Positions 6,890 through 28,277 of a stretch of DNA of 31,168 nucleotides are shown one piece after another. Source of the DNA: Solirubrobacteraceae bacterium (lineage in GTDB: Bacteria > Actinomycetota > Thermoleophilia > Solirubrobacterales > Solirubrobacteraceae). The notes beneath the pieces were generated by a model. That model had not been told where the DNA came from and ran no database searches. It saw only the letters and a list, made by a program, of their open reading frames with translations. The stretch covers positions 1-31,168 of the forward strand of contig JBBJOB010000001.1 of NCBI GenBank assembly GCA_037721455.1, given 5' to 3'. Position 1 is the first letter of the stretch, and the number at the start of each line of letters is the position of its first letter. The position numbers and the translations under genes were made by a program.

Positions 6890-7549
6890 TCAGCGGTCCG
6901 CGCCGCGCAGGCGGTCCCAGGCAGCGCCGAGCATGACGAAGAGGGGTGACGGGAGGTCGGTGGCCTCGACGGTGACCTGCGCGTCGTGGGGGCCCTCGTT
7001 ACGGATCTGGTCGGCGAGCGCGTTGGCGCGCTGCTCGTCAAGCGCGCCGACGAGGACCCAGTGACCGCGGCGACGCAGGTCCAGACCCTCGCCCTCGAGA
7101 CGGTGGGCCAGCTCGGCGGCCTCGTCGCGGCCGGGCGCCTCGACGCGCACCTCCCAGTCGTAGGCGCCGCGGCGGCGGGCGTCCTCGCGCTCGTGCTCGA
7201 GCAGGCGAGCGCGCTCCAGAGCCTCCTCCTCGGGCCCCTCGGGCAGCGGCTCGTCGGCCGGCCGCCACGCCTGCTCGACGGGGTGCCAGCGGGTCAGCGA
7301 CACGGTGGCCGGCAGGTGCTCGTCGACCACGACCTGGCGCACGACGCGCTCGGCCTCGCGGGCGCCCGCGGGTGTGTCGGCGTAAAGGGTGAGGAACTCC
7401 CCGGCGCGCGTGACCGCCACGTCGCGGCCCAGGCGACCGCGGCTGATGTCGCTGACGGCCAGATCGCGCAGCCGCTCGCCCACCGCGTAGCCGTGCTCGG
7501 GATCGTCGAGCTCGACCTCGACGCGCCACTCGTCGTGGTGGTCGGTCAC
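6890..7549 (-). CDS. Hypothetical protein, translationally coupled to Uma2
   Basis: GTG at 7549 overlaps the Uma2 TGA (GTGA overlap). The sequence shows an internal duplication (DEWRVEVEL / YDWEVRVEA) and a hydrophobic C-terminus. Confidence 0.7.
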   Translation of the reverse strand: MTDHHDEWRVEVELDDPEHGYAVGERLRDLAVSDISRGRLGRDVAVTRAGEFLTLYADTPAGAREAERVVRQVVVDEHLPATVSLTRWHPVEQAWRPADEPLPEGPEEEALERARLLEHEREDARRRGAYDWEVRVEAPGRDEAAELAHRLEGEGLDLRRRGHWVLVGALDEQRANALADQIRNEGPHDAQVTVEATDLPSPLFVMLGAAWDRLRGADR

Positions 7550-8109
7550 CGCGTGGGAAAGATGTCGGCGACGGGCAGGGCGAAGCCTGGCAGCAACGGC
7601 GAGGCCAGCGTGTCGCCGGCGGCGAGCTCCAGGCTCACGTCGTACACCGCCGCCTGCGGTGTCGAGCGCCGGAAGACCAGGATCTCGCTCGCCGCCGTGT
7701 CGACGAGCCACAGCTCCGGCAGGCCGTGGCGCTCGTAGGCGGTCTTCTTGGCGCCGACGTCGTAGCGCCAGGTCGAGGGAGATCGGATCTCCACGGCGAT
7801 GTCCGGGAGGGAATACGGCGGGTCATCGTCATGTCCGAGCGCGCGCTCGGAGCGGTACCAGAGGACATCGGGGGCATAGACGTTGACGTCATCGAGCGAG
7901 ACGTCGATGGGCAGGGTTACATGGCCACGGCCCTTGCCGGCGTCCCTCCAGAGGCGCAGCGCCATGTAGAGGTCGGCCAGCACGTTCTGGTGCAGTTGGC
8001 GCGGCTGGGGCATGACCACCTCACCCTCGACGAGGTTCGTCCCTCGCGGCCCGTCCCAGGCCAGGTACTCGTCCGCGGTCATGCGCTGCGCGACAGTCAT
8101 CGCGTTCAT
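7546..8109 (-). CDS. Uma2 (DUF820) PD-(D/E)XK family endonuclease
   Basis: MTADEYL, YAPDVL, PDIAVEIRSPST, KKTAYERHGLPELWLVD and SPLLPGF motifs. GGAGG lies about 10 nt upstream of ATG 8109. Confidence 0.9.
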   Translation of the reverse strand: MNAMTVAQRMTADEYLAWDGPRGTNLVEGEVVMPQPRQLHQNVLADLYMALRLWRDAGKGRGHVTLPIDVSLDDVNVYAPDVLWYRSERALGHDDDPPYSLPDIAVEIRSPSTWRYDVGAKKTAYERHGLPELWLVDTAASEILVFRRSTPQAAVYDVSLELAAGDTLASPLLPGFALPVADIFPTR

Positions 8110-8199
8110 CGTAGTGAAGCCTCCAGGTGGCATCCATTGCCCTCACTTAGGCGCGGGATGTGCCATGTTCGCCCCCTCAGTCCTCGAAGCGCGCTCGGG

Positions 8200-9771
8200 C
8201 TACCCAGCCTCCTTCTCCTGCTCACGCAGATCGATGCGCCGGATCTTGCCCGTGAGGGTCTTGGGGAGAGAGTCGACGAACTCGACCTTGCGCGGGTAGG
8301 CGTAGGCGGAGAGTCGGCCGCGGACGTGGTCCTTGATGGACTGGGCGCACTCCTCGGAGGGCTCGTGGCCCCCGGTCAGGATGATGAAGGCCTTGACCAC
8401 GTGGCCGCGGCGCTCGTCCGGCGAGGCCACGGCGGCGGCCTCGGCCACGGCGGGGTGCTCCAGGCAGGCGGACTCCACCTCGAACGGGCCGATGCGGTAG
8501 CCCGCGGCGATGATCACGTCGTCGGCGCGGCCCTCGTACCAGACGTAGCCGTCGGCGTCCATCGATGCGGCGTCCCTGGTGTGGAACCAGTCGCCGCCGA
8601 AGTCCTCGTGCGACGCCTTCTCGTTGCGCCAGTAGCCCAGGGGATAGTGCGGGTTGGAGCGTGCGCGCAGGCAGATCTCGCCGCGCTCGCCCTGGGCCAC
8701 GGGCCGCTCGTCCTCGTCGAGGATCTGCACGTCCCAGCCGGGCATCACACGGCCCATGGAGCCCTCGCGGACCTCCATGAACGGGAAGTTGGCCACCAGC
8801 GGATAGGACTCGCTCAGCCCGTAGTAGTCCAGCACGGTCACCCCGAACTGGTCGCGGAACCACTTGATCGCCTCTGGGTTGAGCGGCTCGCCGGCCGAGC
8901 AGACGACGCGGAAGTCCTGCGGGTACTGCGTCCCCGCGTCGGGGACGCCCATCATCGAACGGATGGCCGTGGGTGTGCCGAAGACGTTGGTGGGCCGGTG
9001 ACGGGAGAGGAACGCGAGCTGCTTGACCGGATCGAAGCCGCCCTCGCGCTGGATGACGACCTGCGTGGCGCCCAGGCGCCACGGGCCCAGCAACGGCGAG
9101 ATCCCCGCGGCCCAGGCCCACTCGCCCATGCCGTGGAACAGCTCGCCGTCGCGCACGTCGTGGCACAGCTCGAACTCGTTGTGGCCCAGGATGTAGCGGT
9201 GGGCGTGCAGGATGCCCTTGGCCAGCCCGGTGGTGCCCGAGGTGTAGTAGAGCTGGGCAGGGTCGTCGGCCGCGGTGTCGACGCGCTCGACGTCGGTGGA
9301 GCCCTCGTCCAGCGAGCCGGGCGCGAGCAGGATGACCTCCTCGACCATGTCCTCGGACACGCGGCCCCGGTTGGCCTCGTCGGTGACCAGCGCCTTGGCC
9401 TGGGAGTCGCCGATGCGGTGGCGGATCCCGTCGTCGCCATAGAGCACCGACATGGACAGCAGGATCCCGCCGACCTTCCACACGCCCAGGAAGGCCGCCG
9501 CCGTCTCGGGGATCGGCGGCAGGAGCATGGCCACGCGGTCGCCGGGCTCCACGCCCCGCTCGCGCAGCAGGAGCGCGAAGCGGTCGGACATGTCCTGCAG
9601 CTCGCCCCAGTCCAGGCGGCGCACGGTGCCCTGGGGGTCCTCGTGGATCATCGCCGGCTTGTCGCGCGCGTGCTTGTCGCAGACGTCGTGGGCGATGTTG
9701 TAGCGCTCGGGCACCTCCCAGCGGTGCTGCTCTACGGCCTGCTCGTAGGTCATCGCGGGACTGGTGGCCAT
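8200..9771 (-). CDS. Acyl-CoA synthetase (AMP-binding, short/medium-chain type)
   Basis: YYTSGTTGLAKG, YYGLSE, GRADDVI, IGPFEVES and LPKTLTGKIRR motifs. An AAGGAG Shine-Dalgarno sequence is present. Confidence 0.93.
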   Translation of the reverse strand: MATSPAMTYEQAVEQHRWEVPERYNIAHDVCDKHARDKPAMIHEDPQGTVRRLDWGELQDMSDRFALLLRERGVEPGDRVAMLLPPIPETAAAFLGVWKVGGILLSMSVLYGDDGIRHRIGDSQAKALVTDEANRGRVSEDMVEEVILLAPGSLDEGSTDVERVDTAADDPAQLYYTSGTTGLAKGILHAHRYILGHNEFELCHDVRDGELFHGMGEWAWAAGISPLLGPWRLGATQVVIQREGGFDPVKQLAFLSRHRPTNVFGTPTAIRSMMGVPDAGTQYPQDFRVVCSAGEPLNPEAIKWFRDQFGVTVLDYYGLSESYPLVANFPFMEVREGSMGRVMPGWDVQILDEDERPVAQGERGEICLRARSNPHYPLGYWRNEKASHEDFGGDWFHTRDAASMDADGYVWYEGRADDVIIAAGYRIGPFEVESACLEHPAVAEAAAVASPDERRGHVVKAFIILTGGHEPSEECAQSIKDHVRGRLSAYAYPRKVEFVDSLPKTLTGKIRRIDLREQEKEAG

Positions 9772-9869
9772 GGCGCTCGCTCCTTCGCTCTCTCCTGGGG
9801 TGCCCGGTGTCCTACCCGACAGCGCGCCCTGGCGCCACCCGGAACAGGGACGCGGCGCAGCCGAGCCGT

Positions 9870-10118
9870 TCAGAAGCCGCCCGGCGCATCGCGCGGACGC
9901 GGGTCGCTCCCGTCGCCCTGGTAGTCGAGGAAGGCGCCGACGAGCATCACCGCGGTGGCCAGGAAGATCAGGCCGACGCCGACAGCCACGACGAAGCGCG
10001 ACCGTCCGATGTGACCGGCGAGCGCGACGAGCACACCGAGGGCCATGATCGCCACCACCGAGGTCGGGCCGAGAACGGGACCGTCGGACTGGGCGAGGAT
10101 GGCGAGCACCGCGCGCAT
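9870..10118 (-). CDS. Small two-TM membrane protein
   Basis: 82 aa from ATG 10118 with two hydrophobic helices (VVAIMALGVLVALAG; FVVAVGVGLIFLATAVMLVGAF). Confidence 0.6.
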   Translation of the reverse strand: MRAVLAILAQSDGPVLGPTSVVAIMALGVLVALAGHIGRSRFVVAVGVGLIFLATAVMLVGAFLDYQGDGSDPRPRDAPGGF

Positions 10119-10169
10119 GCTGCCATGGGGGGGCGAACTCCGCCCCGGTAGAGCCTGGGCCAGGTGTGG

Positions 10170-10291
10170 ATGCGACAAGGAGGCGGGACTACGACGCTGA
10201 CCTCGCCGCTCCTGCCCGGCTTCGCCCTCCCGGTGGCGGACGTCTTCGAGCTGCTGACCAGCCCGCACACCGCGCGTGTCACGATGAAAGC

Positions 10292-10295
<4 letters not shown>
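10170..10295 (+). pseudogene. 3' remnant of a Uma2-family gene (41-aa ORF)
   Basis: TLTSPLLPGFALPVADVF matches TLASPLLPGFALPVADIF at the C-terminus of the Uma2 at 7546-8109. The TGA overlaps the GTG of the MoxR gene. Confidence 0.7.
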
Positions 10296-11162
<867 letters not shown>

Positions 11163-11179
<17 letters not shown>

Positions 11180-12596
11180 GGAAAGCGTGGGGGCCCCCGT
11201 CGCGCAGGAGGGCATGGCCCTACGGCTGGTGGACTTCGCGCGCGAGCTGCGCGAGGAGGGCGTGATGACCGGGACCAGCGAGCTGCTGGACGCCGTCGCC
11301 GTCCTGCGCGAGGTGGCGTGGACCGACCGCGACGCCTTCCGTGAGGCGCTGGCCGCCACGCTGGCCAAGTCCCAGGAGGACCGGCGCATCTTCGCGCTCG
11401 TCTTCGAGCGCTTCTTCTTCCGCGCGACGGAAGCGGCCGCGCTGCGCGAGGGGGTGCGTGAATCCCGCCCGCCCACCCACGAGGAGACCGGGGACGGTGA
11501 CGCCCCCGGCGAGCTCGACCTCGAGATGCTGCGCCAACAGATCGCCCGGGCCGTCCAGCAGGGCAGCGAGGGCGCGATGCGCGACCTGGCACGCCTGGCC
11601 ATAGCCGCTTTCGGGCGCCCGGGGGAGGGATCGGGCGTGATCGGCGTGGACGTCCAGCGCATCCGCCGCCAGCTCGGCCTGCGCGCCGAGCCCCAGCCCG
11701 AGCTGGATGCCGACGACCCCCGCGCCGCCGGCCTGCCCCGCGACGCGCTGCGGCGCTTCGAGGCCCTGCTGCGCCGCGAGCTGGAGCGTGGGCAGATCGA
11801 GCGCACCGAGACACTGCCGCCCTCCCGGCCCCTAAACGAGCTGGACCGCGCGCTGCCCTCCGGCCCGCTGGCGGACCTGGCCGCAGTGCACCGCGTGGTG
11901 GCCCAGCTCAAGCGCCGGCTGAAGACCCAGGGCCAGGAGCACCGCGGGGCGCGGCGGCGCACCCACGTCGACATCCGGCGCACCATGCGCGCGTCGCTGC
12001 AGACCGGCGGGGTCCCCGTTGTGCTCAAGGAGCGCCCCGTGCGGCCCCGGCGCCCGGAGATCTACGTCCTGTGCGACGTGTCGACCTCGGTGACCAGCGC
12101 CTCGGTGTTCTTCCTGTCCGTGCTCCACGCCCTGCACGACTCGTTTCGCAAGATGCGCTCCTTCGTTTTCATCGAGCGCATCAGCGAGGTGACCGACGTC
12201 TTCGAGCGCGAGCGCGACTTCAAGGCGGTCAGCGAGGCCATCGGGCGTAACGCCGGCGTCGCCGACATCTCCGGCTACACGGATTACGGCCGAGTGTGGA
12301 GCGAGTTCCGCGAGCAGGTGGGAGATGACCTCCACCGCCGCGCGACGATCATCGTGCTGGGCGACGCGCGCACCAACGGGCGCGACCCGCGCGCCGACAT
12401 CTTCGCCTCCATCGCCGCCGACGCGGGGCGGACCTTCTGGCTCAACCCCGAGCCGCGGCTGTACTGGAACTACGGCGACTCGGTGATCAGCGCCTACGAG
12501 CGTCACTGCCGCGCGTTCGAGTGCTGGACCACCCGTCACCTCGAGGACTTCGTCGAGGCGCTGGCGCGGCCGACCTCGATGAGCCCCGACCCGTAG
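11163..12596 (+). CDS. VWA domain protein (CoxE-like), partner of MoxR
   Basis: DIRRTMRASL, LCDVSTSV MIDAS, GYTDYG, LGDARTN and WLNPEP motifs. The start is uncertain (11163, 11187 or 11214). Confidence 0.9.
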
Positions 12597-12616
12597 GCGC
12601 GTCCTACCGTGGGGGC

Positions 12617-13402
12617 GTGCTGGCGCGCGGGCTGACAGCGACCGACGGGCGGACGCAATCTCCTGCGAGAGAGGGCGGCGTGGTGCTGCGCGACGTCGAG
12701 CGAGTGTTCACGACCGGCCGGGGGCGCCGCACGAAGCGGATCGAGGCGCTGGCCGGCCTGACGCTGCGCGTCCAGCCCGGCGAGGTGGTGGCCGTCGTCG
12801 GGCCCTCGGGCTGCGGCAAGACCACGCTGCTGGAGCTGGTGTGCGGTCTCCAGGCTCCCGACGCCGGTGCGGTCGAGGCCGCGCCCGCGGTGCTGATGCC
12901 CCAGCGCGACCTGCTGCTGCCCTGGATGGACGCCCTGGACAACGCGGGCCTGGCCCGGCGGGTGGCCGGGGCCTCCCGCGAGGAGGCCCGCGTCGCCGCC
13001 CGGCCGTTGTTTGCGGCCTTCGGCCTCGAGGGCTTCGAGGACCAGCGACCGGCCGCGCTGAGCGGTGGCATGCGCCAGCGCGTCGCGTTCCTGCGCACGC
13101 TGCTGGCCGGCAAGCCCGTCCTCTGCCTCGACGAGCCCTTCGGCGCCCTGGACGCGCTGACCCGCGCCGAGATGCAGGCCTGGCTGGCCGGCGCGCTGGC
13201 GACAGACCCCCGCACGACCCTCCTGGTCACCCACGACGTCGAGGAGGCGCTGCTGCTGGCCGACCGCGTGGCGGTGCTCTCCTCGCGCCCCGGACGTGTC
13301 GTCGCCGAGCTCGAGGTGCCCGCGCCGCGACCCCGCAGGGCGACCAATTCCGCGCTCGTCGCCCTGCGCGAGCAGGCCATGGAGGCACTTTGGGCCGGCT
13401 GA
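12617..13402 (+). CDS. ABC transporter ATP-binding protein (TauB/SsuB/ThiZ-like)
   Basis: GPSGCGKTT, LSGGMRQR, LDEPFGALD and VTHD motifs. The start is GTG 12617 (TACCGT 6 nt upstream) or GTG 12680. Confidence 0.92.
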   Translation: MLARGLTATDGRTQSPAREGGVVLRDVERVFTTGRGRRTKRIEALAGLTLRVQPGEVVAVVGPSGCGKTTLLELVCGLQAPDAGAVEAAPAVLMPQRDLLLPWMDALDNAGLARRVAGASREEARVAARPLFAAFGLEGFEDQRPAALSGGMRQRVAFLRTLLAGKPVLCLDEPFGALDALTRAEMQAWLAGALATDPRTTLLVTHDVEEALLLADRVAVLSSRPGRVVAELEVPAPRPRRATNSALVALREQAMEALWAG

Positions 13403-16512: not shown

Positions 16513-17634
16513 TCAGAGAACCTTCTCAAAGACCCGGTAGCGCTTGACGATCCGCCCGCCCATGGCCTCCATGGCCTTGTTCATGTTGTGGTTGGTCTCC
16601 AGGATCCACCCCATCTCCCCACCCTTGTACGGGGTCACCGCGGCCATGTCGAAGTGCTCGACGTACAGCTTGGCCGCCACCCCGGTGTGCTGGAACTCGG
16701 GCTTGACGCCCAGGAACCCCACCCGCACCCGGTCCACCGTCGAGCCCTTGCGCAGGAAGTGCCACCAGCCCAGCGGGAGCAGGCGCCCGTTCATGCGGCG
16801 CAGGACCTGGTTGACGTCTGGCACGGTGATGGCCACGCCGACCGTCTCGCCGTCCTTCTCGGCCACCATGAACCAGTGGGGGTCGAAGACGAGCTGCAGC
16901 TCCTGGGCGTAGGCGTCGAGGTCGGCCTTCGTGTAGGGGACGAAGCCCCAGTTGTCCTTCCATGCGGCGTTGTAGACCTCGGCGAAGGCGTCGAGGTCGC
17001 GGCGCAGCGAGCGGCGCGACATCTTGCGCACGACGATGCCGTGGCGGGACTCCACCTGCCCGGCCAGGTCGAAGATGATCGGCTTCATCGCGCCGCGATC
17101 GGCGATCTCGAGGTTCCACATGTAGAGGTCGATGACCTTCTCGAGCCCCACGCCCTCGCACAGCGGCGCGTAGTGGGGCGGGTGCCAGGGCTGCTTGATC
17201 ATCGGCGCCAGGTCGAAGCCCTCGATGAGCACGCCGGCCTCGTCGTTCAGCGTGAAGTCGAACGGGCCGACCATGCGGTCGCGGCCCCGGGCGCGCAGCC
17301 AGCCCGCCGCGGCCTCCACCAGGGCCGACGCCACCTCGGGGTCGTCCTCCAGTTCCAGGAACCCGAAGTTCCCCCATGCGTTGGCATGATGAGCGTTGAA
17401 GGCGTGGTCGATCTGCGCAGAGATGCGTCCGACCACCCTGCCGCCGCGACGGGCCAGGAAGAGCCGGGCATCGCCGTGGCCGAAGAACGCGTTGCAGCGC
17501 CGGCTGAGGTACACGTGGCGCTCCAGGCGCAGGGGCGGGACCCACTGGGCGGAGTTAGAGTGCAGCCGGAACGGGAGCTCGATGAACTCTCGCACGTCGC
17601 GCCTCGACGCCACCGGTCTGACCTCGACGGGCAC
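16513..17634 (-). CDS. Tandem-GNAT N-acyltransferase, candidate bacterial ceramide synthase (bCerS-like)
   Basis: FIELPFRL...WVPPL, LFLARRGGRVVGRISAQID, GNFGFLE and MVGPF motifs, an acyl-CoA-binding-like LGVKPEFQHTG, and EMGWILETN. 373 aa, divergent from the SPT-like gene. Confidence 0.75.
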   Translation of the reverse strand: MPVEVRPVASRRDVREFIELPFRLHSNSAQWVPPLRLERHVYLSRRCNAFFGHGDARLFLARRGGRVVGRISAQIDHAFNAHHANAWGNFGFLELEDDPEVASALVEAAAGWLRARGRDRMVGPFDFTLNDEAGVLIEGFDLAPMIKQPWHPPHYAPLCEGVGLEKVIDLYMWNLEIADRGAMKPIIFDLAGQVESRHGIVVRKMSRRSLRRDLDAFAEVYNAAWKDNWGFVPYTKADLDAYAQELQLVFDPHWFMVAEKDGETVGVAITVPDVNQVLRRMNGRLLPLGWWHFLRKGSTVDRVRVGFLGVKPEFQHTGVAAKLYVEHFDMAAVTPYKGGEMGWILETNHNMNKAMEAMGGRIVKRYRVFEKVL

Positions 17635-17649
17635 GGCGGGCCACCCTAC

Positions 17650-18897
17650 ATGGACCAGACCACCACCGACGTCTTCGCCAAGGCCCGCGGCCACGAGCGC
17701 GCCGAGCAGCTGCGCGCGGCCCGCGAAGCCGACGTGCTGCCCTACTTCCGTCTGCTCGAGGGTCCCGCCGGGCCCGAGGTGGAGATGGAGGGCGCGCGGC
17801 GCATCATGCTGGGCTCCAACAACTACCTCGGGCTCACCGGCGACCCACGCGTGATGGCCGGGGCGCGTGACGCGCTGGAGCGCTACGGCACCGGGTTGAC
17901 CGGTTCGCGCCTGCTCAACGGCACCACGCCGCTGCACCTGGAGCTCGAGCGCGAGCTTGCCGAGTGGATGGGCACCGAGGCGGCGCTGGTGTTCACCACC
18001 GGCCACCAGGCCAACCTGGGCGCGCTGGGCACGCTGCTGGCCCCCGGCGACACGGTTATCGCCGACTCGGGCGACCACGCCTCCATCCTGGACGGCTGCC
18101 TGCTCTCCCGGGCCAAGCTGCGCGCCTTCCGCCACAACCGCCTGGACAAGCTCGAGCGCGCGCTCCAGCGCGCCCGGGGCGACGGCGGCGGGGTGCTCGT
18201 GGTGGTCGACGGCGTCTTCTCCATGGAGGGCGACGTCGCTCCCCTGCCCGACATCGTCGCGCTGTGCGAACGCCACGGCGCGCGTCTCATGGTCGACGAG
18301 GCCCACGGCGCGGGCGTGCTGGGCGCCCGTGGGGCGGGCGCCTCCGAACTGCTGGGGGTCGAGGACCGTGTCGACCTGCGCATGGGCACCTTCTCCAAGT
18401 CGTTGGCCTCCTGCGGGGGCTTCGTCGCCGGCCCCGAGGAGGTCATCGACTTCCTGCGCGTCTCCAGCCGGGCGTTCTTGTTCACCGCGGCCTCGGTGCC
18501 CGCCGCCGTCGGCGCCGCGCTGGCCGCGCTGCGCGTCCTGCGCTCCGACGACGGCCCGCCGTTGCTGGCGCGTGTCGCGCAGGCGGCGCGCCACCTGCGC
18601 GGTGGCCTGCGCGACCTGGGATTCAAGGTGGTGGACGATGAGAGTGCCATCGACACCCCGATCATCCCGGTGCTGGTCGAGGACGACTGGAAGGCGGCGC
18701 TCCTGTGGCGCGCGCTCTTCGACGCCGGCGTTTACGTCAACGTGGCCCTGCACCCCGCGGTGCCGCCCGGCGGCGCGCTGCTGCGCACCAGCGTGATGGC
18801 CACGCACACGCCCGAGGTGCTCGACCGCGCGCTGGCCGTGTTCGCCGACGTCAGGACCCGCTTCGAGGCGCAGCACGGGCCGTTGCCCGCACTCTGA
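17650..18897 (+). CDS. PLP-dependent alpha-oxoamine synthase, serine palmitoyltransferase-like
   Basis: PYFR, LGSNNYLGL, GTGLTGSRLLNGT, DHASI, DGVFSMEGD, DEAHG and the PLP-lysine motif GTFSKSLAS. 415 aa. Confidence 0.8.
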   Translation: MDQTTTDVFAKARGHERAEQLRAAREADVLPYFRLLEGPAGPEVEMEGARRIMLGSNNYLGLTGDPRVMAGARDALERYGTGLTGSRLLNGTTPLHLELERELAEWMGTEAALVFTTGHQANLGALGTLLAPGDTVIADSGDHASILDGCLLSRAKLRAFRHNRLDKLERALQRARGDGGGVLVVVDGVFSMEGDVAPLPDIVALCERHGARLMVDEAHGAGVLGARGAGASELLGVEDRVDLRMGTFSKSLASCGGFVAGPEEVIDFLRVSSRAFLFTAASVPAAVGAALAALRVLRSDDGPPLLARVAQAARHLRGGLRDLGFKVVDDESAIDTPIIPVLVEDDWKAALLWRALFDAGVYVNVALHPAVPPGGALLRTSVMATHTPEVLDRALAVFADVRTRFEAQHGPLPAL

Positions 18898-18978: not shown

Positions 18979-18984
18979 GGTGTG

Positions 18985-19119
18985 AGCGCGCAGCGAGGCG
19001 CCGTCCGAGGAGAGGACGATGACCGGCCCATCCGCGGGGGACGAGGCCGGCGTCGGACGCTGCGCGTGGACGCCCAAGCACGAACACCGTCCCAGGAGCC
19101 GGACGGCAGAAAGGACTGG
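18985..19119 (+). ncRNA. Candidate structured 5' leader
   Basis: Nested stems 18987-18993/19060-19066, 19002-19008/19053-19059 and 19023-19028/19045-19050, plus hairpin 19087-19092/19101-19106 next to the AAAGGA SD. No known family was recognised. Confidence 0.4.
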
Positions 19120-19443
19120 ATGAGCGCCACAGCGACGATCGCCCCAAAGGATCCGGAGGATCCCCAGTACATGTACGCCCTGCGACGGGCCAACGAGGTG
19201 CGCCTCGCGCGCGCCCACACACGCCGCGAGGTGGCTGACGGCAGGCTGGCGGTGGGCGAGGTGGTCCTCACCTGCCCGAGGGAGCTGCACACGATGACCG
19301 TCTTCGAGCTCCTGGCCGCCCAGCGCCGGTGGGGGCGCAAGCGTTCGCGTGACCTGCTCGCGGAGGTGGGGCTGCCCGAGACCAAGTCGCTGGGCACCAT
19401 GACCGAACGCCAGCGCCGGCTGGTGGCCGACCGGCTCGGGTAG
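19120..19443 (+). CDS. Actinobacterial mIHF-like (H2TH) nucleoid-associated protein
   Basis: ALRRANEVRLARA, TVFELL..QRRWG and GTMTERQR motifs. An AAAGGA SD precedes ATG 19120. Confidence 0.75.
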   Translation: MSATATIAPKDPEDPQYMYALRRANEVRLARAHTRREVADGRLAVGEVVLTCPRELHTMTVFELLAAQRRWGRKRSRDLLAEVGLPETKSLGTMTERQRRLVADRLG

Positions 19444-21239: not shown

Positions 21240-21916
21240 CCGCCCCGCGGGGCCTCCCACCCCAGGACGGTCGAGCGGCGTTCCAGGCCCTCCAGCCGGC
21301 GCTCGAAGTCTGCGGGTTCGAGCTGCCCGATCGCCGTGCCCTGCACCTCGCCGCCGAAGGTCGCGAAGGTCACCTGCGGGCAGACGGCGACCGCGTAGAG
21401 GTTGGCCAGCACGCCGTCCTGGTCCCACCCGACCGGGAAGGACCAGTCGTTGGCGCGCACGAGCTGCGCGGTGTCCTCGATGTCGCCCCCCAGGGAGACG
21501 GCCGCGAACTGCACGCCGGGGTGCCGGCGGCGCGCTGCCTCCATCACGTCCAGCGCGCCGGTGCAGTCGGCCGCGCGGGTGGCCAGGAAGGCCAGCACGA
21601 CCGGCCCGCGCTCGGCCAGCGCACACACGTTGAGCACCTGCGCGCCGCGCACCTCGCAGGCAGGCGTGTTCCCCGCCTGCCCCTGCCCGGGGGCCGTGGC
21701 CACGTTGGCGAAGGCGTCCTCCAGACCCGAGGTGGCCAGCGGCACGGCGAAGGGCGGCAGGTTCGCCCCCGGCGCCACGCCGCGCGAGCCGATCGAGTCG
21801 GTGGTGAACGTGTTGTAGGCGACGTAGGCCAGGAAGACCACGGTGACCAGACCGATGATCCAGCCGCCGCGGCGCGCGAGACCGGGGGGGTCATCGTCCT
21901 GCTGAGGCTGGTTCAC
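21236..21916 (-). CDS. Membrane-anchored TlpA/redoxin-like protein lacking a CXXC motif
   Basis: An N-terminal TM, LPPFAVP, GPVVLAF, FAAVS, FPVGWDQDG..ANLYAVAVCPQVTF. GTG 21916 overlaps the MMPL TGA. Confidence 0.65.
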   Translation of the reverse strand: MNQPQQDDDPPGLARRGGWIIGLVTVVFLAYVAYNTFTTDSIGSRGVAPGANLPPFAVPLATSGLEDAFANVATAPGQGQAGNTPACEVRGAQVLNVCALAERGPVVLAFLATRAADCTGALDVMEAARRRHPGVQFAAVSLGGDIEDTAQLVRANDWSFPVGWDQDGVLANLYAVAVCPQVTFATFGGEVQGTAIGQLEPADFERRLEGLERRSTVLGWEAPRGG

Positions 21917-24645
21917 GCCGGCTGGCGGCGGCGGGGACGCAGCCACGACCACCGCGGGCGCAGTTCCCGCAGGCCCTCGCGCAGGCGGTCGGGGTGCTCG
22001 CTGAGCACGAGCACCGCGGGCAGGACCACCAGGACGCCCAGCAGCGAGACCGACAGGTCGACGACGGTCACCGCCCCGAAGTCGCGCAGCATGCGGATGT
22101 CGGAGACCACGAGCACCGCGAAGCCGGCGATCGCGGTGATGCCCGACGCGCTCACGGCCTTCCCCGTCGACACGTAGGTGCGCCGCAGCGCGGCGGCGGT
22201 CTCCAGGCCGCGCGCCCGCTCGGCGCGGAAGCGCTCGGCCAGCAGCACGCTGAACTCGGTGGAGATGGCGATGACCAGCGCACCGAGCGTCACCGACATC
22301 GGGTTCAGCGGCACCTGGGAGACGAAGAGCACGAGCGCCGACCAGCCTGTGGCCAGCACGATGGGCGCCAGAGGCAGCAGCGCGCGGCGCGGCGTGCGCA
22401 GGGCCACCAGGAGGACCAGCGCCACGGCGAGCAGGCCGGCGATCAGCGTCAGCACGCGACGGGTGTGGGAGGAGACCTCGGCGTTGGCACTGGCCGCCAG
22501 CACGGGCAGGCCTACCAGCTCGACCTCCAGCCCCTCCGGCGGGTCGAGCAGCGTGCGCATCTCGTCGATGACCTCCTGCTGGCGGTCCAGGGGCATGAGC
22601 GAGATGCCGAAGCTCAGCGTCGCCTTGGTGCGCTCCTCGTTGAGCACCGACTGGGAGAAGTAGGGGGGCACCGCGGCCAGCAGCGCGTCGATGGCCTGGG
22701 CACTGGGTCGGGCGGCCGGCTGTCCGGGCTGCGTGGTGCCCGACAGCAGGTCGGGCAGCGAGAAGGCCGGGCAGACCGCGGCCTCGCCGCAGCCTCGCTC
22801 CTCAGTGAAGCCGGCGCGGTCCAGCACGCGCTGCTGGTAGTCGACCATCCACCCGATCGCCGCCGGGTTGCCGAGGGCCTCACCCTCGACGAGCACGTCG
22901 ATGGTGCCTCCGATGCCCGAGGCCTCCTGCAGTGTCTCGAGGTCCTCCAACGCGCGCAGGTCGGCGGGCACGAGCTGGGTGATGTCGGACTCGACCTCGA
23001 GCTGGGTATCCAGCGCCCAGCCGGCGAGGGCCAGCGCCACGCCGACGGCGAGGACCCGCACCGGGTGGCGCACCGCGAGCTCCAGCGATGCATGGCTCCC
23101 CGCGCGCAGGCGGGCGGCGCCGGCGCGGCCGCAGCGGCGCACAGCTGCGGGCGGGCGCACGCGCACCACCGGGCGGCCCAGCGCGAGGGCGCCACGACCG
23201 AGCGGACGCAGCATCTCGCCCGCCCCGCGCAGCGCCGGCATCAGGCGGCGCGGGAACCCGCCGTCGCCGTCGTCGCGCACCAGCACCAGCGCGGCGATGC
23301 CGGCGGTCAGCGTGAGGGCCAGGGCGACGACTATGCCCAGCACGAGCAGCGCGCCGAAACCCTGCACCATGGGCACGGGCGAGAGCAGGAGCACGAGGAA
23401 GCCGGCCGCGGTGGCCGCCGCGGCGGTGACCACGGTGGGCGCGCCCGCGCGGGCGACGACCCGCGAGGCCTCGGCCGCGGAGCGCACGCGCGCCTCCTCG
23501 ACCCGCGACTGGATCTGGATCGCGTAGTCCACGGCCAGGCCGATGAGCACCGGCAGCACGGCGATGGACGCCATGGTCAGCGAGGCGCCGGCCAGCGACA
23601 GCGCACCGAAGGTCAGCGCTGCGGCGCCCAGGGCGATGGCCAGCGGCGCCAGGCGCAGCCGGGTGCGGAAGACCAGCGCCAGCGTGGCGGCCATGACCAG
23701 CCCGGCGGCGATCAGCAGCACGATGATCGAGCCGGTGATCGAGTCGGTGAGGTCGGCCACCACCACCGGGGCGCCGGTCACCAGGTACTGCCCGCCGGCC
23801 CCCAGACGCCAGTCCTCCATCCCAACTGCGGCGCGGATGGTCTCGATGGTCCGGGCCTGCTGCTCGTCGCTGAGGCCGGGCTCCAGACGCACCTGGATGA
23901 TCGCCGTGTCCGCGCCGCCCTGGGCGTTGGGGAACAGGTAGGAGAAGCGTTCCTTGGGTGCGCACAGCGGCTGCGAGGTGTCGCAGATGAGCTGGGAGAC
24001 GAACTGCGGGTCGCTCGCGCTGGGGATGCCCCTGATCCCGTAGCGGGCCGCCAGCCCGAAGACCTGCTGCTGGAACTGCGCCTGCACCTGGCCCGCCGCC
24101 GCCTCGCCGGCGGCCTGGGCCCCGGCCTGCGACGCCCCGTCCTCGCGGGCCTGCTCGACAGCCTCCTGCGCCGCGGCGTCGGCCTGCTCCCGGCTTGCCT
24201 GCAACTGGGTCTGGAACTGGCTCTGGAGCTGGAACGCGGCCTCGTTGATGAAGGTGCCCGGCCCGTAGACCGCGCGCACCGGGCGGTCGGCGGCCATCGT
24301 CGCGCAGGGCCCGCCCGGGCCGCCGGGCGGCTGCACGCCGTCGGGCACGTTGCCCGAGATGCAGCCCTCCAGGCCGATGACGCGCCCCAGGTCCTCTCCC
24401 AGGAAGGTGTCGGCGATGTCGCCGCGCACCATCACGAACACCGCGTCGTCGCCGAAGGCCTCGCGCCAGCGCTCGGTCGCGGCGTAGACGTCGCTGCCGT
24501 CGCCCACCAGCGTGTCCGTGCCGGCCGAGACGTCCAGCCGAGTCGCCATCACCGCGCCGACGAGCGCCAGCACGACCGTGACGACGAGCACCGGCGCCGG
24601 GCGTCGCGCGGCAAGGCCCATCAGGGCGTCCAGCGGCCTCCTCAT
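21913..24645 (-). CDS. MMPL/RND-family transporter
   Basis: 910 aa with two repeats of TM plus extracytoplasmic domain, including TGAPVV, GLAVDYAIQ, VGLPVL, AISTEFSVL and AIAGFAVL. Confidence 0.88.
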   Translation of the reverse strand: MRRPLDALMGLAARRPAPVLVVTVVLALVGAVMATRLDVSAGTDTLVGDGSDVYAATERWREAFGDDAVFVMVRGDIADTFLGEDLGRVIGLEGCISGNVPDGVQPPGGPGGPCATMAADRPVRAVYGPGTFINEAAFQLQSQFQTQLQASREQADAAAQEAVEQAREDGASQAGAQAAGEAAAGQVQAQFQQQVFGLAARYGIRGIPSASDPQFVSQLICDTSQPLCAPKERFSYLFPNAQGGADTAIIQVRLEPGLSDEQQARTIETIRAAVGMEDWRLGAGGQYLVTGAPVVVADLTDSITGSIIVLLIAAGLVMAATLALVFRTRLRLAPLAIALGAAALTFGALSLAGASLTMASIAVLPVLIGLAVDYAIQIQSRVEEARVRSAAEASRVVARAGAPTVVTAAAATAAGFLVLLLSPVPMVQGFGALLVLGIVVALALTLTAGIAALVLVRDDGDGGFPRRLMPALRGAGEMLRPLGRGALALGRPVVRVRPPAAVRRCGRAGAARLRAGSHASLELAVRHPVRVLAVGVALALAGWALDTQLEVESDITQLVPADLRALEDLETLQEASGIGGTIDVLVEGEALGNPAAIGWMVDYQQRVLDRAGFTEERGCGEAAVCPAFSLPDLLSGTTQPGQPAARPSAQAIDALLAAVPPYFSQSVLNEERTKATLSFGISLMPLDRQQEVIDEMRTLLDPPEGLEVELVGLPVLAASANAEVSSHTRRVLTLIAGLLAVALVLLVALRTPRRALLPLAPIVLATGWSALVLFVSQVPLNPMSVTLGALVIAISTEFSVLLAERFRAERARGLETAAALRRTYVSTGKAVSASGITAIAGFAVLVVSDIRMLRDFGAVTVVDLSVSLLGVLVVLPAVLVLSEHPDRLREGLRELRPRWSWLRPRRRQPA

Positions 24646-24667
24646 GAGCTGCTTGGGAGGCTAGGGA

Positions 24668-25822
24668 CTACTCCATCCCCAGCGGGCCCTGCGACTCGCC
24701 CGACAGGAACTGGCGCACGAAGGCGTTCTCCGAGTCGAACAGCTCCTCCGCGGGACCCGACTCCACGATGCGCCCCTTCCACAGCACCGAGATGTGCTCA
24801 GCGACGCGGCGGGCCGTCATGATGTCGTGGGTGATCAGGGTGAAGGCCGGCGGGTGCTGGCCCTCCTTGAGGTCGCCCATCATGTCGGCGTGGATCTCCT
24901 GGATGAGCTCGCCCAGCAGGGCGGTGCGCACCGGGTCCAGGCCCGAGTCGGGCTCGTCGAAGAGGACGATGTCGGGGTCGAGCACCAGCGCGCGCGCGAA
25001 GCCGGCGCGCTTGCGCATCCCGCCCGACAGCTCGTTGGGCAAGCGCGTGTGCGCGTTGCCCAGGCCGACCTCCTCGAGGCGACGGTTGACGATCTCCCCG
25101 ATCTCCTCCTCGCCCTTGTCGGTGTGCTGGCGCAGTGGGAAGGCGGTGTTGTCGAAGACGTTCATCGAGCCGAACAGCGCGCCGTCCTGGAAGAGCACGC
25201 CGAACTTCTTGCGCATCTCGAACAGGTCGTCGTCGGGCATGTTGGGCACCGACTCGCCGTGGACCAGCACGTCGCCTTCGTCGGGGTACAGCAGGCCGAC
25301 CATGTGCTTGATGCACACCGACTTGCCCGTGCCCGAAGGGCCCAGGATCATCGAGATCTTTCCCTCGGGCAGGCCCATGTTGAGGCCGCGCAGGATGCGC
25401 GCGTGCGGGCCGAAGGCCTTGTGGACGTCGACGAACTCCACGGCGTCGGCCGCGCCGCTGGGACGCTGCTTGCCGGTGTGCCACTGGTACTCCCCGTCGC
25501 CCTCGCCGGCCGATGGCGACTCGGACACGACCGACACCCGGGTGCGCGCGTCCTCGCGGGTGCGCTGATCCTCGTCGCGCGGGTCGTCCGCGAACGGCCC
25601 CGGCTCGCCCCACAGGTCCTCCTCGGCGGTGCCCGGGCCCTCCAGCTCGTCCCGGGTCAGCGGCTCCTGCGCGGCGCGACGCTCGCCCTCCTGATCGGAA
25701 CCGACGGCGTGCGCCTGGGTCCGGGGGGCATCGTCAGCCTCCCACGGAGCGACCTCCTCGCGACCCTCGCCCTCGTCATCGCCCTGCCCCTTGCGGGATC
25801 CGAAGCGGGGAAGTCGAGCCAA
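24668..25822 (-). CDS. mlaF: MlaF/Mkl(MceG)-type ABC ATP-binding protein with a long acidic N-terminal extension
   Basis: GPSGTGKS, FQDGALFGSM, LSGGMRKR and FDEPDSGLDP motifs. TTG 25822 lies 2 nt after the permease stop, and a later start is possible. Confidence 0.88.
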   Translation of the reverse strand: MARLPRFGSRKGQGDDEGEGREEVAPWEADDAPRTQAHAVGSDQEGERRAAQEPLTRDELEGPGTAEEDLWGEPGPFADDPRDEDQRTREDARTRVSVVSESPSAGEGDGEYQWHTGKQRPSGAADAVEFVDVHKAFGPHARILRGLNMGLPEGKISMILGPSGTGKSVCIKHMVGLLYPDEGDVLVHGESVPNMPDDDLFEMRKKFGVLFQDGALFGSMNVFDNTAFPLRQHTDKGEEEIGEIVNRRLEEVGLGNAHTRLPNELSGGMRKRAGFARALVLDPDIVLFDEPDSGLDPVRTALLGELIQEIHADMMGDLKEGQHPPAFTLITHDIMTARRVAEHISVLWKGRIVESGPAEELFDSENAFVRQFLSGESQGPLGME

Positions 25823-25824
25823 TG

Positions 25825-26619
25825 TCAGCCTCCGATCGGGGCTCTGGGATTCGCGCCCCAGAAGATCGCCGTGCCGAGCATGCCGATGAGGTGCACGATC
25901 ACGAGGTTCAGCACCATCGACTTCGCGGTCGCGGTGCCCACGCCGACCGGTCCACCGCCGGCCGTGTAGCCGTAGTAGCAGCCCACCAGAACGATGCCGG
26001 TGGCCATGAACATGCCCTTGAGCACGCTGTAGAGCAGGTCCGGGGGGTTCTGGAACATCCAGAAGATGAGGAAGTAGCCGCCCGAGCTGACCTCGCCGAT
26101 CTGCTCGACCACCGCCAGGTAGGAGGCGAAGAAGCCGGCCCCGACCGCCGCGATGTACATGAACGGCAGCACGATCCACGCGGCCAGCAGGCGCGTGGCG
26201 CACAGGAAGAGCATCGAGTCGATGCCCATGACCTCCAGGGCGTCGACCTCGTCGGAGATCCGCATGGAGCCGATCTCGGCCACGAATCCGGTGCCCACCT
26301 TTGCGGCCATCATGTAGCCGAAGGCGTAGGGCACCAGCTCGCGCAGGTCACACCAGGCGCTGAACACGCCCGCGTAGGCCGGCGAGCCCACGGCGCGGTT
26401 GAAGTAGGCGCCCTCGATGCCGCACGTGAGGCCGATGATGAACACCAGGCCCCAGATGACCAGCGTCGAGCCGATGATGAGGATGCCGGCCTGGCGCAGC
26501 GCCTCGCCTGAGAACTTCAGCACGCGCAGGCTGTAGACCTGGCCCAGGACGCGCCCGCAGAACTGCGCGATGACGCCGAAGTTCGCCAGCCACTCGCGGG
26601 GGAGGGCGAACCAGCCCAT
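25825..26619 (-). CDS. mlaE: MlaE/YrbE-family permease (second copy)
   Basis: AAKVGTGFVAEIGSMRISDEVDALEVMGI and GGGPVGVGTAT motifs. Confidence 0.9.
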   Translation of the reverse strand: MGWFALPREWLANFGVIAQFCGRVLGQVYSLRVLKFSGEALRQAGILIIGSTLVIWGLVFIIGLTCGIEGAYFNRAVGSPAYAGVFSAWCDLRELVPYAFGYMMAAKVGTGFVAEIGSMRISDEVDALEVMGIDSMLFLCATRLLAAWIVLPFMYIAAVGAGFFASYLAVVEQIGEVSSGGYFLIFWMFQNPPDLLYSVLKGMFMATGIVLVGCYYGYTAGGGPVGVGTATAKSMVLNLVIVHLIGMLGTAIFWGANPRAPIGG

Positions 26620-26620
26620 C

Positions 26621-26659
26621 AGTGGCCCATCCTGTGAGTCCGCGCAGGACGGACCACTA
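26621..26659 (-). repeat. Short palindromic element, an internally deleted sibling of the 30417-30584 element
   Basis: The - strand reads TAGTGGTCCGTCCTG-cgcggactca-CAGGATGGGCCACT. The arms are identical to the outer ends of the 30417-30584 element, and the element fills the whole mlaE-mlaE gap. Confidence 0.85.
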
Positions 26660-27466
26660 TCGAATTACCGTCAGCTCGGGGTTGGTGGCCAGCAGGGTCT
26701 GGGTGAAGACGTAGTTGAAGGCGAACGCGCCCAGGAACGAGATAACCACCGCCTGGTTGACCGCCCGCCCGACGCCGGCGGCGCCGCCCGAGGCCGTCAT
26801 GCCCTTGTAGCAGCAGACGATCGCGATGATCCCGCCGAACAACGTCGTCTTGAGCACGGACGCCCAGAGGTCCGTGGTCGATGCGTTGGTGAAGAAGGTG
26901 GCCCAGAACGGCCCCAGCGGCGCGCCGTAGGTCAGCGTGGCCAGGACGCCGCCGAAGATGCCGAACAGCAGCGCGTAGATGTTGAACAGGCCCGTGACCA
27001 GCATGAGGGCCAGGAAGCGCGGGACGACGAGGTTCTTGACCGGGTCCACGCCCAGCACCTGCAGCGCGTCGAGCTCCTCGCGGATCTTGCGCGCGCCGAG
27101 ATCCGCAGTGACCGCGGTGCCGGCGACCCCGGCCAGCACGATGGCCGTCACGAAGGGGGCGAACTCGCGGATGGAAGCGAGGACGAAGAAGCCGCCCAGG
27201 CGGTCCAGCGCGCCGAAGAGCACGAGGAAGTTGGCGGCCTGCAGCCCCGGCGCGCCGTACCCGAAGGCGACCGTCGAGATCAGCAGCGGGAACCAGCACA
27301 GCTTGAGAGCGAAGAGGAACTGACCGATGAACTCGCCCCCGTAGGGATAGGGCGGGCGGATCGCGGAGGTGATCGTCTTGCCCGTGAGGATCATCATGTC
27401 CCCAACCTCCTCGAGCACGCTCTTGGTCGGGAGGAAAGCCCGATCGGCGATGCTGCGGACGGCCAC
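26657..27466 (-). CDS. mlaE: MlaE/YrbE-family permease (first copy)
   Basis: REFAP, AGVAGTAVTADLGARKIREELDALQVLGVDP and GVGRAVNQAVV motifs. GTG 27466 follows a GAGAGG SD. Confidence 0.9.
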   Translation of the reverse strand: MAVRSIADRAFLPTKSVLEEVGDMMILTGKTITSAIRPPYPYGGEFIGQFLFALKLCWFPLLISTVAFGYGAPGLQAANFLVLFGALDRLGGFFVLASIREFAPFVTAIVLAGVAGTAVTADLGARKIREELDALQVLGVDPVKNLVVPRFLALMLVTGLFNIYALLFGIFGGVLATLTYGAPLGPFWATFFTNASTTDLWASVLKTTLFGGIIAIVCCYKGMTASGGAAGVGRAVNQAVVISFLGAFAFNYVFTQTLLATNPELTVIR

Positions 27467-27617
27467 GGTCTTCCTCTCTCCCTTTAAGCGCCCGGGGCGG
27501 CGCGAGCCGGCACAGCGTATGTCACCGGTTCCCGGGCTGCCAACCGCTAACCGGGGCAGTCGACGCCCTGTCAACCGCGGCCCGGCGCAGGGGGCATCTG
27601 GTACGTTCGCCGCCGCC

Positions 27618-28277
27618 GTGGGAGGGCCTGGACGTTTCCGCATCGCAGCACGGCGCGCACTGACCGCGGCGCTGGCCTGCGCGCTCGCGCTGAGCGCCTG
27701 CGGCGGTGAGGAGCGCCAGGACGCCGGCGAGCCGCGGGGCAGCTTCCCCGTCGAGGTCACCGAGGTCGAGTTCCCCCTCGCGCAGAGCCTCGCCGACCGC
27801 ACGACCTTCGTCGTCGAGGTGCGCAACACGGGCACCGAGACCATCCCCAACATCGCGGTGACCCTCGACGGGCTGGACCGCTCTGCCAAGGGGGAGGACG
27901 TCGCCGCCGATCCCCAGCGGCCGATCTGGATCCTGGAGTCCGGGCCCCGTGGCGGCACCACGGCCTACGTGAACACGTGGGCCAAGGGCGAACTGCCCGC
28001 GGGCGAGACCGCGCGCTTCGAGTGGGACGTGACGGCGGTGGAGGCCGGCACCCACGAGCTCACCTACCGCGTCGCCGCCGGCCTGGACGGCAAGGCCCGT
28101 GCCCAGGGCGAGGGCGAGCGCGCGCCGGAGGGCGATGTGACCGTCACGATCACCGACCGGCCGACCGACGCGAGGGTGGACCCCGACACCGGCGAGGTCA
28201 TCCTCGAGGGCGGCGGGTCGCCCGACGACCGCAACGACCCGATCGACCCCTCCGAGGAGAGCCGGGGCGGCGAGTAG
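27618..28277 (+). CDS. Putative lipoprotein with a beta-sandwich domain
   Basis: An LSAC lipobox after a basic/hydrophobic leader and beta-rich VEVRNTG...FEWDVTAV...LTYRVAAG. The start is uncertain. Confidence 0.7.
   Translation: MGGPGRFRIAARRALTAALACALALSACGGEERQDAGEPRGSFPVEVTEVEFPLAQSLADRTTFVVEVRNTGTETIPNIAVTLDGLDRSAKGEDVAADPQRPIWILESGPRGGTTAYVNTWAKGELPAGETARFEWDVTAVEAGTHELTYRVAAGLDGKARAQGEGERAPEGDVTVTITDRPTDARVDPDTGEVILEGGGSPDDRNDPIDPSEESRGGE

Follow-up and report, generated by a model that had tools for sequence, protein, structure and literature searches.

Bacterial sphingolipids are best known from Gram-negative organisms, namely Bacteroidota, Sphingomonadaceae, Caulobacter and Myxococcota, and the pathway of Caulobacter crescentus comprises a serine palmitoyltransferase (SPT; Spt, CCNA_01220/CC_1162), a bacterial ceramide synthase (bCerS, CCNA_01212/CC_1154) and the reductase CerR (CCNA_01222/CC_1164). 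The Solirubrobacterales, in turn, are among the most abundant Gram-positive lineages of soil. In this work we analysed a stretch of 31,168 nucleotides from a Solirubrobacteraceae bacterium (contig JBBJOB010000001.1 of assembly GCA_037721455.1; hereafter, the window), which is contig C217 of a metagenome-assembled genome (MAG) of 2.08 Mb, 292 contigs and 82% completeness. The window holds, head to head, the genes of an alpha-oxoamine synthase (AOS), P0001, and of a tandem-GNAT N-acyltransferase, P0002. From comparisons of sequence and predicted structure we consider it likely that these genes encode the Solirubrobacterales counterparts of Spt and bCerS, which open the bacterial ceramide pathway. 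Lipids of the sphingolipid type are thus probably made in this lineage, and apparently the third enzyme of the usual pathway is not involved; the substrates and the product would be those predicted from the homologues. Of the named genomes, that of Candidatus Siliceabacter maunaloa (Solirubrobacteraceae) comes closest, at 94%, in agreement with the Thermoleophilia-like host recognised in a preliminary description of the window, made from its letters alone.

The order of steps described for Caulobacter is acylation before reduction (PMC11087976). In a 2026 preprint the locus of this bacterium extends from ccna_01212 to ccna_01226 and includes LptF/G paralogues, and that of Escherichia coli UTI89 is drawn as its homologue. 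The E. coli Spt was shown biochemically to make 3-oxo-sphinganine (PMC9386255), and the same paper presents yghO (ECD_02850) as the homologue of CC_1154, an acyl-CoA N-acyltransferase required for dihydroceramide synthesis. By analogy, the synthase of the window, which depends on pyridoxal 5'-phosphate (PLP), would form a 3-keto long-chain base by condensation of a long-chain acyl thioester with an amino acid, for which L-serine is the most likely candidate, and the tandem-GNAT enzyme would N-acylate this base to an oxidised (3-keto) dihydroceramide, if the order of steps of the Caulobacter model also applies here.

Comparison with Described Loci

Both enzyme families are shared with Caulobacter, and the synthases of one Caulobacteraceae and one Maricaulaceae MAG belong to the proteobacterial Spt, the sister group of the Solirubrobacterales clade. 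The differences concern the remainder of the pathway and its setting. Unlike in Caulobacter, no CerR orthologue, dedicated acyl carrier protein (ACP), acyl-ACP synthetase or LptF/G paralogues were found here, and the host is a Gram-positive without a periplasm, the compartment in which the Caulobacter CerR acts. The two genes, which are about eight genes apart in Caulobacter, are separated here by 15 bp.

In E. coli strains other than K-12, the sphingolipid locus (ECD_02850-02854 in BL21) contains yghO and, divergently, aasR (fatty acyl-AMP ligase), epi (NAD-dependent epimerase family), acpR (ACP), spt, lptG2 and lptF2. As in the Solirubrobacterales, yghO is divergent from the spt operon; in E. 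coli, however, the ligase, reductase and ACP genes lie between yghO and spt, and the E. coli Spt prefers acyl-AcpR. In K-12 (L109; NC_000913.3, 3129043-3131340), as compared with L110, an IS5 adjoins yghO and replaces the entire aasR-epi-acpR-spt-lptG-lptF block present in other E. coli; bases 1-1103 alone of the annotated K-12 yghO match other strains, and its annotated 5' end stems from the IS5 junction.

Two further loci carry the same bCerS family (38-39% identity to P0002), with an Spt-like AOS in the cluster or in the polypeptide itself. One is that of Streptomyces tsukubensis (L088; CP020700.1, 4383593-4404777), with, in this order, a PAP2_3 gene, the bCerS homologue, a CerR-like short-chain dehydrogenase/reductase (SDR), a 2,492-aa type I polyketide synthase (PKS), an AOS and a ketosynthase, a content that suggests a polyketide-primed sphingoid-like lipid in Streptomyces. 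The other (L087) encodes P0162 (10001-12343), a natural fusion of 780 aa with the synthase N-terminal and the bCerS C-terminal; a CerR-like SDR lies immediately upstream (9003-10013) and a PAP2_3 gene downstream (12356-13258). The L087 host is an uncultured, probably Gram-negative bacterium, and the locus reads as a compact three-gene phosphosphingolipid module in which PAP2_3 is the putative ceramide head-group transferase. Both loci thus have a CerR-like SDR and a PAP2_3 gene next to bCerS, and Streptomyces also a PKS, whereas the Solirubrobacterales loci have none of these within 10 kb.

An Spt-Like Synthase

P0001 matches Pfam Aminotran_1_2 (1.8e-55), and its relatives in the Protein Data Bank (PDB) are headed by the SPTs of Sphingobacterium (2e-96) and Sphingomonas (about 1e-90), followed by Kbl (about 1e-74) and BioF (about 1e-61). 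Its identity to the E. coli Spt is 43%, and its top NCBIfam models are three SPT equivalogs (NF047599, NF047600 and NF047603). The motifs named in the preliminary description are all in place (PYFR at residues 31-34, GSRLLNGT at 85-92 and GTFSKSLAS at 246-254), and the blocks HASI, DEAHG, GTFSKSLAS, GSRLLNGT and ALLRTS align with those of the E. coli Spt and of all bCerS-adjacent synthases.

BioF and Kbl share with P0001 the AOS fold, the PLP chemistry and the catalytic His, Asp and Lys, and one alternative is that P0001 is an ordinary BioF or Kbl that lies beside an unrelated acetyltransferase by chance. The NCBIfam scores of P0001 for Kbl (356) and BioF (353) are indeed just about 40 bits under those for the SPT models. 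They remain, however, below the cut-offs of the BioF model TIGR00858 (353.2 against 426.45) and of the Kbl models NF005394 (356 against 460) and TIGR01822 (299.6 against 493). In a maximum likelihood tree of 48 AOS sequences, a starred branch (96/99) unites BioF and Kbl of E. coli with the BioFs from two complete relatives and with a second AOS encoded by the MAG; all 29 synthases with a bCerS neighbour or fusion, P0001 included, fall outside this clade. That second AOS (contig C233) passes the BioF cut-off (446.5 against 426.45), so that the genome has a BioF of its own; complete relatives have exactly two AOS paralogues, one BioF and one P0001-type. The alignment separates the groups as well. 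Spt-like proteins read GSR..NG(T/S) and the bCerS-adjacent synthases all read T(F/Y)SK(S/A), whereas BioF and Kbl read SR..SG or VRFICG, with SG or CG in place of NG, and TLGKA or TFGKG; the earlier distinction of GTFSKS as the SPT-type version of the PLP-lysine motif holds. No tdh was found among the annotated neighbour genes of the pair, and no bio gene adjoins it. We regard the BioF or Kbl explanation as extremely improbable. The proposal that the synthase is SPT-like and neither BioF nor Kbl is supported by the PDB ranking, the identity to the E. coli Spt and the separating branch, and condensation of L-serine is its predicted activity.

An Acyltransferase of the bCerS/YghO Family

The second gene had been described as a bCerS-like tandem GNAT, a reading that gained in strength. 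BLASTP aligns P0002 with E. coli YghO at 34% identity over 375 residues (E 2e-77), and a profile of 72 members of its family (alignment A1) finds the yghO product of E. coli K-12 at E 1.7e-125. The WVPPL (31-35), VVGRISAQID (67-76) and GWILE (342-346) motifs are present, and the WGFVP and WILE.N..MN blocks are conserved throughout A1. An exhaustive search (E up to 1e-3) gave 7,512 cluster representatives; the homologues are mostly of about 375 aa and 34-42% identical to P0002. One member, P0126 (784 aa), is a tandem of two full bCerS-family units, with four GNAT lobes in all.

Pfam recognises GNAT in P0002 only weakly and only towards the C-terminus, in the second half of the protein, NCBIfam has no model for P0002 or YghO, and no PDB sequence matched P0002 in a search at E up to 1. 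AlphaFold gave a model of P0002 (mean pLDDT 95.9, pTM 0.93) that has tandem-repeat GNATs as its best matches among solved structures. When it was compared by Foldseek with the AlphaFold models of Swiss-Prot, the protein annotated as 'Bacterial ceramide synthase' of Caulobacter vibrioides NA1000 (A0A0H3C8X0) aligned with a template modelling (TM) score of 0.94 by query and 0.91 by hit, at 37% identity (root mean square deviation 2.1 A, 381 columns), and E. coli YghO also with 0.94, at 34% identity. The next family, MshD, reached 0.65 at 17% identity. MshD, MAB_4324, the clavulanic acid tandem GNAT and Eis share the tandem GNAT fold with P0002 (Foldseek E about 1e-13), but MshD and the other tandem-repeat GNATs have 12-17% identity and TM 0.54-0.65, as against 0.94 for bCerS/YghO. 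By sequence and predicted structure P0002 is assigned to the bCerS/YghO family, with N-acylation as its predicted activity. The backbone of the GNAT family tree is unresolved, so the closest bCerS lineage cannot be read from it.

Conserved Pairing and Distribution

We collected 80 Solirubrobacterales loci with a bCerS gene (L003-L082), and in 76 of them the synthase divergently adjoins the GNAT gene. One of the remaining four lies at a contig end without room for a neighbour, and the other three (L065, L071 and L075) have bCerS with no Spt-like synthase within 10 kb. Outside this order, spt and bCerS are adjacent or a few genes apart in Enterobacterales, Pseudomonas, Caulobacteraceae, Maricaulaceae, a Deltaproteobacteria MAG, WOR-3 and three unclassified bacterial MAGs, and in other phyla the pair was seen beside CerR-like reductases and PAP2_3 genes. 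From the conserved adjacency and the natural fusion, the two genes are predicted to be functionally linked; the same 76 loci and the fusion also argue against a BioF or Kbl that came to lie by the GNAT gene by chance. The P0162 fusion and the head-to-head layout with 12-16 bp between start codons suggest a tight coupling of the two steps. A complex prediction for Spt and bCerS (alignments A3 and A1) gave a score of 0.00, the mark being 0.32, and carries no weight either way.

The bCerS family occurs in 61 of 401 sampled Actinomycetota genomes, one of the 61 being G324, an unpublished genome on which none of our statements relies. It was present in all 15 sampled Solirubrobacterales and in 1 of 16 genomes from the rest of the class. 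Relatives are found in 230-335 species-level genomes and are common in metagenomes of soil, sand, hypolith and rock; the best 80 matches of two genome scans are MAGs only. DNA of the same or a near-identical strain was found in about 16 studies of soil, sand, hypolith and sediment.

This distribution bears on whether the pair makes a bulk membrane lipid or a signalling or specialised metabolite of low abundance. The latter would recall S. tsukubensis, in which the bCerS and CerR homologues lie beside the large PKS, the ketosynthase and the AOS, and enzymes of the AOS family such as CqsA, a PDB relative of P0001 at about E 4e-30, make autoinducers. In the Solirubrobacterales loci, however, no PKS, nonribosomal peptide synthetase or tailoring genes lie within 10 kb, the neighbours being housekeeping or transport genes, and occurrence in 15 of 15 genomes of the order fits a core envelope function better. 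We hold a specialised metabolite to be very unlikely.

Search for the Remaining Enzymes and Weighing of the Assignment

Seven cluster-linked CerR-like SDRs from different phyla match each other over their full length at 70-182 bits. Used as queries against the MAG they gave best matches of 45-66 bits, partial and on different contigs. Neither the PAP2_3 nor the AcpR queries had a match in the MAG, and no ligase, reductase or ACP of the E. coli aasR/epi/acpR type was detected there by tblastn at E 1e-3 or above the generic background. The Streptomyces CerR-like query scored 46-87 bits in five further relatives. In four near-complete ones the CerR profile (A2) scored 124-151 bits; in the Streptomyces genome it gives 121 bits to generic SDRs and 380 to the true gene. 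As an alternative reductase we considered the top CerR-profile match in one relative (G281) and rejected it, because no orthologue is conserved in bCerS-positive genomes and bCerS-negative genomes have equal matches. Within 10 kb of the pair, none of the 80 loci has a CerR-like, PAP2_3-like or AcpR-like gene. The preliminary description was correct in seeing no CerR in the window, and the statement can be extended to the whole MAG and nine relatives; searching beyond the window for CerR and an ACP returned no orthologue in this MAG, of which 82% is represented, and neither a PAP2_3 gene nor a dedicated ACP came to light in the MAG or in the nine relatives. A reductase unrelated to CerR is possible.

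Several points weigh against assigning the pair to ceramide synthesis. For this lineage, the product and substrates are predicted from homology. P0001 lies below all SPT equivalog cut-offs (395.8 against 640, 394.2 against 500 and 330.2 against 670). The Solirubrobacterales synthases form a clade of their own (100/100) on a branch of 0.66, and this clade is sister to the proteobacterial Spt, the E. coli Spt included, at just 80/82, in a tree without reference sequences for 5-aminolevulinate synthase, CqsA and cysteate acyltransferase. The MAG is only 82% complete. Finally, the searches yielded no CerR orthologue, PAP2_3 or AcpR-type ACP, so that canonical dihydroceramide cannot be taken for granted as the end product. 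Concerning the cut-offs, these equivalogs are lineage-specific (Proteobacteria and the Cytophaga-Flavobacterium-Bacteroides group), and NF047599 is passed by the E. coli Spt (601) and the Caulobacteraceae Spt (631). A deltaproteobacterial synthase with bCerS and a CerR-like SDR adjoining (L168) also falls short (551.8 against 640), so failure to reach them is not diagnostic.

Some of these observations would also suit a pair that makes an N-acyl alpha-aminoketone or aminolipid other than a sphingolipid, from another amino acid (Gly, Ala or cysteate) or an unusual acyl chain, with subsequent N-acylation by the GNAT enzyme. The low equivalog scores, the separate clade on its branch of 0.66 and the failure to find CerR, PAP2_3 and AcpR in the MAG and the 80 loci are compatible with such a product, as is the presence of a cysteate-C-fatty acyltransferase among the PDB relatives of P0001 (E 1.9e-64). 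Nevertheless, the nearest characterised relatives of P0001 are SPTs and not the cysteate enzyme, the SPT-type motifs GSRxxNG and TFSKS are retained, and L168, with its bCerS and CerR linkage, misses the same cut-off. We judge a product outside the sphingolipids unlikely and favour the interpretation of the pair as Spt and bCerS.

Within that interpretation we put forward, tentatively, that the Solirubrobacterales have a minimal module of two genes that stops at the 3-keto ceramide or uses a reductase unrelated to CerR. Ceramide biosynthesis would thereby gain a third variant, and dry soils a bacterial source of ceramide-like lipids that had gone unrecognised, a proposal that we rate as possible, though doubtful.

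Gene Calls, Spacer and Surrounding Genes

The features of the window are given in Table 1. Long spurious open reading frames (ORFs) occur on both strands, across both genes, because the GC content of the window is 69-77%. The third-position GC plot settles both reading frames: the values are 0.86-0.99 for the minus frame between about 16480 and 17440, and 0.93-0.97 for the plus frame between about 17680 and 18640. Since tblastn matches in relatives begin at residues 1-4 of P0001 and P0002, both start codons are sound, and the head-to-head order and short spacer first reported were confirmed in the sequence.

Table 1. Position of the gene pair, its spacer and other features in the window.
Feature	Position	Strand	Remarks
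bCerS/YghO-family tandem-GNAT N-acyltransferase gene, putative bacterial ceramide synthase	16513..17634	-	373 aa (P0002), GTG start at 17634
Serine-palmitoyltransferase-like AOS gene	17650..18897	+	415 aa (P0001), ATG start at 17650
Spacer between divergent start codons	17635..17649		15 bp
Conserved -10-like hexamer TAGGGT (TANNNT), predicted	17643..17648	-	-14 to -9 of the bCerS GTG
Conserved motif that includes the hexamer	17635-17652		
Actinobacterial IHF-like gene	18982-19443	+	Downstream of the synthase; probable true start near 19120
MMPL transporter, ABC ATPase and two MlaE-type permeases (Mce-like)	21913-27964	-	3-9 kb from the pair
AMP-binding gene	8200-10188		
AAA (MoxR-like) ATPase gene and CoxE-type VWA gene	10292-12596	+	Unrelated to the pair
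Uma2-family endonuclease gene	7546-8133	-	Unrelated to the pair

The short spacer is conserved: both starts could be placed in 75 relatives, and 65 of these have 12-16 bp between them. In 61 of 76 rows (the window and 75 loci) the region ahead of the bCerS gene holds a TANNNT hexamer whose first base is 12-15 nt from the start codon. It is mostly TAGGGT or TAGCGT, and together with the complement of the synthase start it reads CAT(G/A)TAG(G/C)GT; in the window it is one base from the synthase ATG, on the opposite strand. From its position, the bCerS mRNA may be leaderless or nearly so, with a -35 region inside the synthase gene, and the layout suggests interdigitated divergent promoters and a co-regulation of the pair, which we infer from the 15-bp spacer. 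The preliminary description held that each promoter must overlap the coding region of the other gene. This would be true of the predicted bCerS -35 region, in the synthase coding sequence, but not of the bCerS -10 element, which would sit in the spacer. For the synthase no comparable -10-like element and no Shine-Dalgarno sequence were seen. A scan of 17350-17950 for promoters and terminators of the E. coli type found nothing and is uninformative for a GC-rich actinobacterium. Among the sequencing runs that hold the stretch, none is recorded as RNA, and one marginal run (0.07 of words) was guessed to be RNA.

None of the surrounding genes belongs to the two-gene module. The IHF-like gene downstream of the synthase reaches 38.6 of the 60 bits required by NF041260, over the whole domain, and keeps its position in 68 of 80 relatives. 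Upstream of the GNAT gene lie a small arginine-rich ORF, an AlkA-like glycosylase and an NMT1-type ABC transporter. The MMPL and Mce-like genes were considered as linked lipid exporters and rejected, being co-located with the pair in just 14-18 of the 80 loci, and the AMP-binding gene was rejected as an equivalent of AasR, with 24% identity to the E. coli ligase and co-location in 3 of 80 loci. The ATPase and VWA gene pair and the endonuclease gene are further contents of the window.

Implications

The literature acknowledges the ceramide pathway in some Gram-positive bacteria, and in our literature search we found no paper that ties Solirubrobacterales or Thermoleophilia to sphingolipid synthesis. 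What is new here is the occurrence at the level of this lineage and the minimal head-to-head layout without a recognisable CerR, the pathway itself being known. If the lipids are made, they would place ceramides in the context of a Gram-positive envelope, and the Solirubrobacterales would be a likely source of sphingoid lipid biomarkers in soil. They would also offer a natural test of the need for CerR, which in Caulobacter is periplasmic, in a host that has no periplasm.

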